Under the pieces are notes generated by a model that saw only the letters and a list, made by a program, of their open reading frames with translations, was not told where the DNA came from and searched no databases. A program made the position numbers and the translations under genes. Shown here piece by piece: positions 19,397-55,284 of a stretch of 64,000 nucleotides of DNA; the first letter of the stretch is position 1, and each line of letters begins with the position of its first letter. The stretch is taken from assembly GCA_000182565.2 (NCBI GenBank), contig KQ257454.1; one strand, written 5' to 3'. Source of the DNA: Spizellomyces punctatus DAOM BR117 (Eukaryota).

Positions 19397-20538
19397 ATGT
19401 CGGGCTTCCTCTACGCCCCGGACCCTGGGGTCGCCAGCTTATCCAGGGGCATCGCTCGGATGTCCCTTGCACCAAACTCCCTACCACCACCGTCCGTCAA
19501 CCTTGATACCGACCATCAGCTATCTGAGCTCACCACGCGATGCGCCTCGTTTTTAAAGAGATTTGACGCGTGGGTTCTGGCAAAGAAGAAGGAAATGAGC
19601 GATGAAAAATTGGCGCACATAAAAATAATAGACGAACTCAAAGGTATTTGACGGTCAGGAGAGAGAAAGTGCCGACTTGGTGCTAGCCGCGATGTTATCT
19701 ACATTGCTCACATCTTGTGTGTTTTTTGCGGCATATCAGAAAAGGAATCCCAAACAAAAACTCAAATCGAAGTCTACAAAGGCAAAGAATCAGATCTGCA
19801 ACGAGGTGCGTTTGATCTGTATGTATCTACCATGAGCTAGTATTGACAAGGCCAATCCAGCATACGAAAAGGAGCGGCAGGAAGCGGAAGACATGGAAGC
19901 TGAAGTTACGGACCTCCGAATACAAAAAGATGAGCGGGACGCTACGCGAGATGAGTTGATGGACCGCGTGCAAGCCATGAAAAACGACATTCGACGGAGG
20001 CGAGAAGGTGCAGTGCTGTGGTGAAGGTGAAGCTGAAGTGTTTGGGATTGCTCGTGAGCCTGACCTCATACCGTCGCGACAGAGCTGAACAAAAAGCGAG
20101 AAGCACGATTAAATCAGCACAAAAGAATTCAGCCTGAATTAGAATGCTTTATGAACAAACTGGCGATGGATGTGAGGGGGCTTCAAAGTATGGAAACCTT
20201 ATTTCTCCGCCTTTATGTCATGCTGGAGCACTTACGTTGTATCTGTCGTAGCGGACATGTTGAAGTTTGTCTTTACCCATGTACATCCGCAAGACTGGGA
20301 GAAAGAGTACACCTTTAGCATTGATGTGCGAAGAAACGATTACCAAGGTGCGTGTACAAACAGTTGTTCTGTGCTTTCGAAACCTGTACGTAACTGTCTA
20401 TCCGTAGTTGTGGAATGTAACCCGGCTGTGTCCAATCTCGACGAGTTGGTGGAATGGTTGAACAAGACTCGAGATTTCTACACGTTTCTAAAGATGATGC
20501 GACGAAGTTTCGTTGAGCTCGCAAAGATCCATCAGTGA
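19397..20538 (+). CDS. SPC25: Ndc80 complex kinetochore subunit Spc25
   Basis: Long coiled coil then RWD-like LKFVFTHVHPQDWEKEYTFSIDV..Y.VVECNP..L..LN.TRDFYTFLKMMRRSF. Confidence 0.85.
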
Positions 20539-20671
20539 TGACGATGACCCGGTTAACCAAGTTCACGGGGAGGGGAGCCATCCGCGTTAAGTGGACTGCA
20601 TACAAAATCAACGGATGTTACATGTCGAGTATGTTCATTTCTAAAAATATATAGTACATAATATAACTACA

Positions 20672-20688
20672 GGGGGGGGGGGGGGGGG
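20672..20688 (+). repeat. G17 homopolymer between convergent SPC25 and SIVA-like 3' ends
   Basis: Read directly; followed by CCGGGG. Confidence 0.9.
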
Positions 20689-20764
20689 CCGGGGCAAGCA
20701 TTCTCCCTCTCAATTGCTCATCTACCAACTGTTCATGCTCTCTGTAGGTGAGGTACATAATGTG

Positions 20765-21421
20765 TCATCTCCTATGTTTGCTTGAAGATCCAACAGTTGA
20801 TCCTCGGCCATCTTCGCTGCATGATATGCAAAAATATCGCTCTTCTGGCAGATCATAGCTTATGAAAAATGGCGTAACTACGCTAGAGCGATGTGATTGA
20901 ATACCACTAGTGTATACTTACTTTGCCACTGAGCACAAACTGCAAAACAGATCTCCACAGGTATCGCATGCACGTCCGCAATCTTGACACGTCGCGTGCT
21001 CGCAAAATGTACATCGTTCGGCTGTTTGCTTCTTGCATTGCTGACACGGGCCTACGGTGGGTTGTTCTCTTGCGGGACTTGCGGCAGATGTTTTCTGTTG
21101 GAATATCTGCCGTTGTCCTCGTGCAAGCAACTTGCGCGTTTTATCTGCCAAGACGTACATATGAAGATGAATGACGTTATCACGTCTGCAGACCAATGTG
21201 CGCAACACTTGAAAACCTTTTCCGCCGACCAGCTACGAAGCATAAAAAGAAGCGGGCTTACCATGCACTGCATTCCAGTTCACGTCCGCGCGGTGGTATT
21301 TCAGCATACTGGCACAGTTCTCTTCAAAAGGGTTGAGACGTTTTCCTTTACCCTTGATTGATTTGATGTCCCCATCTTGCTCGGAACGTGGAGCTGCCAC
21401 TTCAACGACCGCTGTCAACAT
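20765..21421 (-). CDS. SIVA1-like Cys-rich zinc-finger protein (exons 21421-21262, 21144-20922, 20858-20765; 158 aa)
   Basis: Spliced in frame by GT-AG introns; KRLNPF..., VHDKTRKLLARG and six CxxC pairs ending ERYFCISC, matching the layout of animal SIVA1 as recalled. Confidence 0.75.
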
Positions 21422-21638
21422 GGAGAGTGTCAAGCGTGAACGTTGGGGCAAAAAGGTCCGCCAAGACAAAAGTCCGCGCGTTTGCACATTCCATCCATTT
21501 GAATGACATTCCAATCTCACGTGCCTTCGGTCTGATGAATTCCCCGCTTATTGTCTCACGTGGCCTCCGAGTTGGTCCTCCAACGCATCTTTAAATCCCG
21601 TCCCCGCTCCCCGATTTCCGCAGCATTTCCTACCTTGA

Positions 21639-22943
<1,305 letters not shown>

Positions 22944-53955: not shown

Positions 53956-55020
53956 CTATGCAAATCCCGTTTCCTTCATTTTCCTTCTAACCAGGTCTTC
54001 GGTAGTCTGTATCTGGTCTTCCAAAGACATGTTTGAACTGTCCACCACAACAGCGTCATCGGCCTTCAATAGAGGTCCTACTTCACGGGTCCGATCCGAC
54101 AAATCTCTAGCCTCAATTTCCTTTAGCACTGTTTCCAGATCTGGAAGATCACCCTTGGATTGCTTTCTCTGGAGTTCCTCCAACCGCCGCTTAGCTCTAA
54201 CAAGTGGATCTGCTTCAAAAAAGATTTTGAGATGGGCTTGTTTAAGGACGTTGGTGCCAATGTCTCGGCCGTCCATTACGACGCCGCTGGGGACTTGTGA
54301 CTCGGGCGACACGTCTTTTGGGGCCAATTCAGCACAAAGGTCACCGAGTTCTTTTATCTGGTCCTTGAGACTTTGAACCTGTGCGAAATCTCCTTCGGAA
54401 GTTGCCGTAAATAGGGCCTTCTCAAGCTCGATCTTTTCCTGGAGGAACATTGCGTACTCGGAATCAGCACTCGCCTCCTCGGGTGGGGGCTGCCCTTCCT
54501 TTCCTTCAGCAATAGCTCGCTGTTTGGAGCACAGAACCTCTCGTACTGAGGGTAAAGCTGCTATAGGGGCTACGGCGCGCGTGATCATTGGCAATCGGAT
54601 CTCATCCGTCACATCGACCCCGTCCAAGTACACGTGCGTTATAGCTGTTCTGGCGTTATCCAGCTGATCAACGGGAAGTTGGGGTGTACGAAAAGCAAAA
54701 TTGGTTTGAGAGGCCATATTTGTGATGGTTTGAGCGTCTTTCGTAGGGTCCAGATTCCACGCCATAGCTTTGAGTGTCAAGCCTCGATACATTGCCCCAG
54801 AGTCGATATATGTGAAGCCTAGACGCGACGCCACTGCACGGGCGGTCGTGCTTTTCCCGGACGCTGCTGGGCCATCTATGGCCACTTGGAAGCTCTTAAT
54901 TGATGTGGAATAGTATTGGACTCTGGCGACAGGGAACAGGTTGGCGTTGAAGAGCGGAGATCGGAACCCTAGCACGGAGAGTCTGGGCTTAGGAAGCCAG
55001 TTTGCATAAACATGAAGCAT
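53956..55020 (-). CDS. cmk: Bacterial-type cytidylate kinase with an N-terminal targeting-like leader and an internal insertion, intronless
   Basis: VAIDGPAASGKST, YIDSGAMYR, LDGVDVTDEIR, VR..L...QR, VVMDGRDIGTNV, KIFFEA...RAKRR, RDLSDRTR..PL..A.DA..VDSS. Confidence 0.9.
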   Translation of the reverse strand: MLHVYANWLPKPRLSVLGFRSPLFNANLFPVARVQYYSTSIKSFQVAIDGPAASGKSTTARAVASRLGFTYIDSGAMYRGLTLKAMAWNLDPTKDAQTITNMASQTNFAFRTPQLPVDQLDNARTAITHVYLDGVDVTDEIRLPMITRAVAPIAALPSVREVLCSKQRAIAEGKEGQPPPEEASADSEYAMFLQEKIELEKALFTATSEGDFAQVQSLKDQIKELGDLCAELAPKDVSPESQVPSGVVMDGRDIGTNVLKQAHLKIFFEADPLVRAKRRLEELQRKQSKGDLPDLETVLKEIEARDLSDRTREVGPLLKADDAVVVDSSNMSLEDQIQTTEDLVRRKMKETGFA

Positions 55021-55284
55021 AAACAGAGAAAGATGATAAGATGTGAAAACGTTATAAAGGCTCTAAAGAAGATGAAAAGATGCTCCTTACCTGCAACATG
55101 TTTCAGAGAAGGAGGGAGGATGGCGATGAATGATCTCAAAGGCGACTCGTGCAGCAATGTCCAAATAAATCGATGATCGGCTTAGTAAGCAATGAGTCAG
55201 CAATTTTGTGACTTGAGGTGCCGACACTGGGTCTTGTTTGAATTGTTGGGTCTTCCTGTGCGATCACCGTAGCGACGGAAGAGA

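Follow-up and report, generated by a model that had tools for sequence, protein, structure and literature searches.

A probable SIVA1 orthologue in the chytrid-type fungus Spizellomyces punctatus and its candidate function

In a 64,000-nucleotide stretch of Spizellomyces punctatus DNA (hereafter the window), a three-exon gene on the minus strand very probably encodes a single-copy, vertically inherited SIVA1 orthologue of a chytrid-type fungus, as judged from sequence and intron position. Comparison of the homologues indicates that the known SIVA family gains a wider range and a narrower ancient core. The chytrid, Basidiobolus and green-alga orthologues mark the N-terminal motif, the helix and the zinc module as ancient parts, and the central PIP and death-domain-homology region as non-ancient. 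The gain is moderate, because domain databases already label such proteins and the function proposed here is inferred. A review (PMC6171514) collects many roles for human SIVA1, some of them in conflict with one another (pro-apoptotic, oncogenic, ARF ligase, RAD18 adaptor), and states that mouse embryos die without the protein. S. punctatus, apparently without p53, BCL-2 and TNF receptors, would offer a system for probing the core function of SIVA.

Gene structure and transcript signal

The SIVA gene has a convergent Spc25 gene on one side and a divergent nitronate monooxygenase-family gene on the other; the features of the locus are as follows.

21422-21662, no strand: head-to-head region with the nitronate monooxygenase-family gene, 241 nt; one ACGCG core, two CACGTG sites
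21262-21421, minus strand: exon 1, 160 nt; start codon, basic KGKGKR stretch, KRxNPF family motif, first half of the conserved helix
21145-21261, minus strand: intron 1, 117 nt, GTAAGC..CAG, phase 1, within the D54 codon (H-D-K-T)
20922-21144, minus strand: exon 2, 223 nt; rest of the amphipathic helix (KTRKLL..G), low-complexity linker, CxxC pairs 1-5
20859-20921, minus strand: intron 2, 63 nt, GTAAGT..AAG acceptor, phase 2, within the N128 codon (N-Y-D)
20765-20858, minus strand: exon 3, 94 nt; YD..ERxFC motif, CxxC pair 6, short tail, TGA
20618-20764, minus strand: 3′ UTR, to a probable poly(A) site at 20618; overlaps the 3′ end of the convergent Spc25 transcript

The first-pass annotation had proposed three GT-AG-joined exons that give an uninterrupted 158-aa protein, present in the ORF track only in pieces. 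Both points were borne out. The spliced exons comprise 477 nt (158 codons plus TGA) with zero internal stops, and the length of each intron is divisible by three. An ORF finder yields fragments only because both introns keep the frame, each with one in-frame stop. All of the motifs quoted earlier were found in the spliced sequence, together with the six CxxC pairs (12 cysteines). No earlier ATG than the one at 21421 occurs in its open stretch, and the chytrid homologue P0003, also of 158 aa, begins alike. We rejected an alternative in-frame acceptor within intron 2: it would shorten the intron to 39 nt and give the protein 8 residues that the homologues lack.

P0003 matches all three exons in order, its residues 13-60 falling on exon 1 and residues 126-150 on exon 3 at 52% identity; with only 3 matches in the genome, this points to one locus. 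The insertions in the genomic read-through of the S. punctatus gene sit exactly at gaps against spliced homologues (one chytrid and two coral-type proteins). At the intron 1 column, the coral-type read-throughs P0032 and P0037 break as well, with junction residues Y-G-K..A-E-K-T in P0032 and H-G-K..A-D-K-T in S. punctatus. At the intron 2 column, the read-throughs P0002, P0004, P0029, P0032, P0037 and P0009 break or end, and the coral-type ones show a K and then a stop after the fifth CxxC pair, as at S. punctatus intron 2. From these sites, read in the proteins of coral-type genes and not in those genes' DNA, we infer that both SIVA intron positions are common to chytrid and coral-type genes, an independent line of evidence.

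Four of 10 sequencing runs were compared with the locus. X8, the one among these four recorded as RNA, was aligned at 80% likeness, with about 6% of the run used. X8 placed 245 short reads on a 3-kb stretch, with a minus-strand depth of 1-9 across 20611-21014. Six X8 reads carry a poly(A)-type loose end (poly(T) before 20618), 147 nt beyond the stop codon, and the signal fits a transcript that ends 147 nt past the SIVA stop. No joint across intron 1 or 2 was listed in the 4 runs, and X8 reads cover neither exon 1 nor the greater part of exon 2; the splicing is accordingly read from homology. Contigs from X1 and X2 cover the upstream neighbour only and not the SIVA gene. X8 further suggests that the Spc25 (plus strand) and SIVA (minus strand) transcripts share about 40-90 nt at their 3′ ends (20538-20711).

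Family membership and range

Exon 2 alone matched the Pfam Siva family (PF05458) at 26.0 bits (E 8.5e-6) against a gathering cut-off of 26.2, and the intron-containing read-through reached 21.3 bits, below the cut-off. The next-best Pfam family for exon 2 was the ANCHR-like B-box (E 0.0076), and exons 1 and 3, each searched alone against Pfam, gave no match. Both Siva scores being under the cut-off, the protein could be read as no SIVA orthologue at all, only an unrelated six-CxxC protein scoring on cysteine spacing alone. We consider this extremely unlikely and already largely refuted by the comparisons below.

A phmmer search of 1.84 billion representatives returned 17 matches. Siva was the best family in 16 of these, and 12 of the 17, both best ones included, passed the Siva cut-off. 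One match, P0005 (fibronectin repeats), aligned to query residues 44-76, which are mostly translated intron 1, and was set aside as spurious. A profile search built from 8 phmmer matches retrieved 18 proteins, every one with PF05458, and one cluster among them contains corals named 'Apoptosis regulatory protein Siva'. A homology search with exon 2, limited to longer proteins, retained none of 12 candidates. A further homology search from the alignment retained 5 of 4229 candidates, all already known; the homologues retrieved include no vertebrate SIVA1. The top three Atlas matches were Siva clusters (0.92-0.93; 184-202 shared features), with a recognition value of 1959 that marks this as weak. 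Across the 14 members compared, Siva was the best family each time, and FYVE_2 was matched by one of them (E 0.49).

We built a coral profile from six SIVA proteins of coral or coral-like type, of which one is named, another clusters with named corals and four are unnamed. All six came from searches seeded with the S. punctatus gene, a choice that favours the result and is a point for the cysteine-spacing reading. Against this profile, spliced residues 27-143 aligned to positions 3-127 at 80.1 bits. Shuffles with the cysteines fixed (n = 1000) gave a mean of 9.5 and a maximum of 38.1 bits. A cysteine-free N-terminal coral profile scored 14.3 bits, which none of 1000 shuffles reached (maximum 9.4). 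In a profile-profile comparison, 12 animal-type members and 4 others (two fungi, an alga and one unnamed) aligned end to end with 99.6% probability. These results, and the two intron sites common to coral-type genes, speak against a score from cysteine spacing alone. The SIVA-family identity claimed in the first-pass annotation thus holds, with signal beyond the CxxC pairs.

The six CxxC pairs have SIVA-family spacing and are followed by the YD..R.FC tail; the KRxxPF motif and the amphipathic helix, which spans residues 51-62 in the model of a homologue, both lie outside the cysteines. Among animal SIVA1/Siva proteins, coral Siva (Oculina P0025, Stylophora P0042/P0043) is nearest in build. S. 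punctatus and animal SIVA have in common the KRxxPF N-terminal motif, the (V/I)(Y/H)xxTxxL..G helix, six equally spaced CxxC pairs and the NYD..ERxFC tail; the coral-type proteins add the two intron sites. Compared to animal SIVA, the S. punctatus protein has about 25 extra N-terminal residues and keeps the animal PLQLKTHV stretch only in part. The middle is short in S. punctatus and corals, where the bilaterian death-domain-homology and PIP region is missing. In the snail Nucella lapillus, by comparison, P0014 (323 aa) has a far longer middle with the motif Q-x-x-L-D-x-x-G-H-L twice, a motif absent in corals and fungi; from its sequence it is possibly a bilaterian PIP-like element.

The host had been described as an early-diverging fungus, and this was confirmed. 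The genome encodes a fungal alpha-aminoadipate reductase and IFT57, which mark a flagellated fungus, and the best named match is a chytrid protein, Phlyctochytrium arcticum KAI9101380.1, also of 158 aa. Other named members are Basidiobolus meristosporus ORX99780.1 and the snail protein P0014, and the streptophyte green alga Chlorokybus atmophyticus contributes EP00898_P004251 (Siva 40.7 bits, a single record). The P. arcticum, B. meristosporus and Chlorokybus proteins belong to the Siva family and have the S. punctatus architecture; the first two are deposited as hypothetical proteins and the third under a gene-model identifier.

The Chlorokybus homologue, albeit one record, argues for a SIVA that predates the opisthokonts and is hence older than animals. 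The earlier wording 'ancestral opisthokont SIVA' is therefore probably too narrow. SIVA1 is described in PMC4068132 as having no yeast counterpart. Our search of the literature (mostly open-access main text) found no paper in which a fungal or algal SIVA is described. The fungal homologues already carry precomputed Pfam PF05458 labels, so fungal SIVA has been latent in the databases. The best identity among the 1.84 billion representatives was 43%, from which it follows that the S. punctatus product itself was not seen in the collection; its absence fits an unannotated gene and is no proof of one.

We note that many SIVA entries in the collection are unspliced read-throughs (P0002, P0004, P0009, P0012, P0015, P0017, P0029, P0032 and P0037). 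Several of these look neither animal nor chytrid by sequence, and the family may be wider than its named records.

Predicted fold of the zinc module

We modelled the chytrid homologue with AlphaFold2 from an alignment with 14 sequences. The N-terminus was predicted to be disordered and residues 51-62 to be helical; the cysteine region, which closes with a helix of its own, is modelled with confidence (pLDDT 90-95 over 91-140). We suggest three interleaved zinc sites, formed by CxxC pairs 1+3, 2+5 and 4+6, with sites 2+5 and 4+6 probably making a FYVE-like cross-brace that lacks the lipid-binding motif. The best 13 rows of a VIA-align search (Z 4.3-5.9) and the best 14 of a Foldseek search (E 0.038 or worse) were FYVE/Rab-effector zinc fingers; these scores are middling, and the matches cover residues ~96-152 of the homologue. 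A coral SIVA control model was poor (mean pLDDT 44), so the FYVE-like assignment rests on one model.

The individual matches included RUFY1 2yw8, melanophilin 2zet, RIM 2cjs, rabphilin 1zbd and CARP2 1y02, which superposed on the model with Z 5.0-5.9 and rmsd 2.4-4.7. Compared to FYVE/Rab-effector fingers, SIVA has two extra CxxC pairs and no lipid-binding basic motif, and these fingers have 14-22% sequence identity to it with no significant profile match. Pfam FYVE gave no match for the S. punctatus exons. The first-pass annotation had held that a best match to FYVE/Rab-effector fingers would speak against SIVA; by sequence Siva wins, and by predicted fold these fingers are indeed the best match.

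The SIVA cysteine region has been called B-box-like (PMC3935273). In a sequence-profile search, the nearest solved structure was the MID1 B-box (2ffw; E 3.5e-4 over 37 positions), with one SIVA CxxC pair and the B-box histidines skipped. The structural searches put FYVE-type fingers first, with no B-box among the matches listed. A sequence search of the PDB found no relative of SIVA itself.

Rabphilin, melanophilin and RIM have this layout, a helix and then a FYVE-like finger, and the ancestral job of SIVA could accordingly be a small GTPase, trafficking or cytoskeletal interaction, as in Rab effectors. We regard this as distinctly unlikely. Both structure searches agree with it, as do a weak profile match to rabphilin-3A across helix and finger (E 0.79) and the reported binding of the human SIVA1 C-terminus to stathmin and receptor tails (PMC6171514). 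However, the fold scores (Z <6, Foldseek E >=0.038) show only a common zinc-finger arrangement, the one FYVE_2 match is at the level given above, and the SIVA N-terminus resembles a nuclear signal. The FYVE lipid motif is of the RRHHCR type and the Rab-binding motif of the SGAWFF type; both are absent from the SIVA alignments.

Candidate functions and the wider locus

We tentatively propose a nuclear adaptor for a ubiquitin ligase, with Rad18/PCNA ranked first among the candidates, a mechanism that, taken as a whole, we rate as possible and somewhat short of probable. SIVA would be a small nuclear adaptor without a catalytic site of its own. Its basic N-terminus with the KRxxPF motif would carry it into the nucleus, the conserved amphipathic helix V52-G63 would dock on a partner, and the 12-cysteine, probably three-zinc module with its FYVE-like core would bind a second partner. 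By binding two partners, SIVA would bring a ubiquitin ligase to its substrate. The Rad18-Rad6/PCNA damage-bypass system leads as the partner candidate because the helix matches the human RAD18-binding stretch and because, of the known SIVA1 partners, these were the ones found in the genome. The apoptotic roles (CD27, BCL-xL, p53/ARF) would have been acquired later, in animals.

In human SIVA1, residues 1-33 are reported to be enough for nuclear entry (PMC3935273), residues 40-58 to bind RAD18 and residues 83-96 (Q85, I88) to bind PCNA (PMC4068132); this last paper is the one source for the RAD18/PCNA role. Residues 1-55 of snail P0014 align to Pfam Siva model positions 1-55, and through P0014 the helix V52-G63 maps to ~38-50, assuming that the model numbering follows human numbering. 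By this alignment, the segment equivalent to human RAD18-binding 40-58 is kept in S. punctatus. The human helix is reported to bind BCL-xL, XIAP and RAD18 (PMC6171514, PMC4068132), and since these partners are unrelated, the kept helix does not single out Rad18.

S. punctatus SIVA has no canonical PIP box, and the bilaterian-type central motif found twice in snail P0014 is missing. What is present is Q64-x-x-I67, a QxxI half-motif without the aromatic pair of a PIP box; a local HMMER alignment puts it at model positions 84-87, and a collinear alignment at the end of the helix. By eye, P0002, P0011 and P0012/P0029 retain the Q, and P0003, P0013, P0016 and the corals do not have it. The half-motif is absent from the nearest named relative.

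The S. punctatus genome contains PCNA, two matches to Y-family polymerases and a Rad18-like locus that is matched in both its RING and its C-terminal part. A host without TNF receptors and BCL-2 proteins had been presumed, and this agrees with our exon-by-exon scans, run with no positive control, which found no match to BCL-2 (PF00452), TNFR_c6 (PF00020), p53 (PF00870) or stathmin. Compared to animals, S. punctatus thus has no detected CD27/TNFR, BCL-2 or p53 partners. The label 'apoptosis gene' stands as no more than a family name. A complex prediction for residues 38-150 of the chytrid homologue with a C-terminal exon of the Rad18-like locus scored 0.00, with the alignment unused and the partner fold uncertain, and speaks neither for nor against binding; the Rad18-like exon had no PDB match.

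A fuller version of the adaptor proposal, which we find doubtful in its entirety, would place SIVA in the last common ancestor of green plants, fungi and animals, if not before, with a gene structure that chytrids and corals have kept, and would have it act as a non-apoptotic nuclear ubiquitin adaptor, its helix on Rad18 and its FYVE-like three-zinc module (no B-box) on the substrate, before loss in yeasts. If true, animals added the death-receptor, BCL-xL and p53 links, and the chytrid shows the core function without such partners.

SIVA could also serve some different nuclear or cell-cycle target, as adaptor or E3, within an animal-like regulatory set that was retained in early fungi and lost from yeasts, as E2F-Rb was. 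This is rather unlikely in our view, less so than the trafficking reading. It would account for the PIP box not being retained, and it agrees with reports that human SIVA1 is an E3 for ARF and an E2F1 target (PMC6171514) and that basal fungi retain an E2F/SBF hybrid network (PMC4862756). One ACGCG core does lie 56 nt upstream of the start (21477-21481), but its locus count is near chance (reached by 14 of 200 shuffles). As promoter motifs, ACGCG and TTTSSCGC (one mismatch) were both rejected, being at or near chance in the 3.2-kb locus. The protein has no RING consensus (zf-C3HC4 E 2), and no target can be named for it.

A role as an ancient cell-death regulator, with for example a fungal BIR protein or metacaspase as partner, is very unlikely. 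Human SIVA1 is reported to bind XIAP, though through the XIAP RING and not the BIR (PMC6171514). A CARP2 FYVE-type finger is among the fold matches, and BCL-2, TNFR and p53 are without a match in the genome. The genome has a BIR-domain gene; fungal BIR proteins, however, are mostly survivin-like mitotic factors. We therefore keep the nuclear adaptor as the working proposal.

Nothing at the locus suggests a functional link of SIVA to either neighbour. The head-to-head region carries CACGTG(A) E-box/Cbf1-type sites at 21518-21523 and 21557-21562, spotted post hoc, out of 12 in the 64-kb window; the PCNA gene has a CACGTG-type site ~125 nt upstream. GT-AG introns of 64, 81 and 68 nt (21781-22174) in the nitronate monooxygenase-family neighbour are joined in X1 contigs, the first also in X2. 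The alpha-aminoadipate reductase search met several multi-module adenylation-domain loci (NRPS-like). Elsewhere in the window, a minus-strand ORF at 42405-43349 matches AAA_16 (E 2e-4) and nSTAND3 (E 5e-4) weakly and is possibly a STAND-type NTPase, and 53956-55062 (minus strand) encodes a bacterial-type cytidylate kinase.
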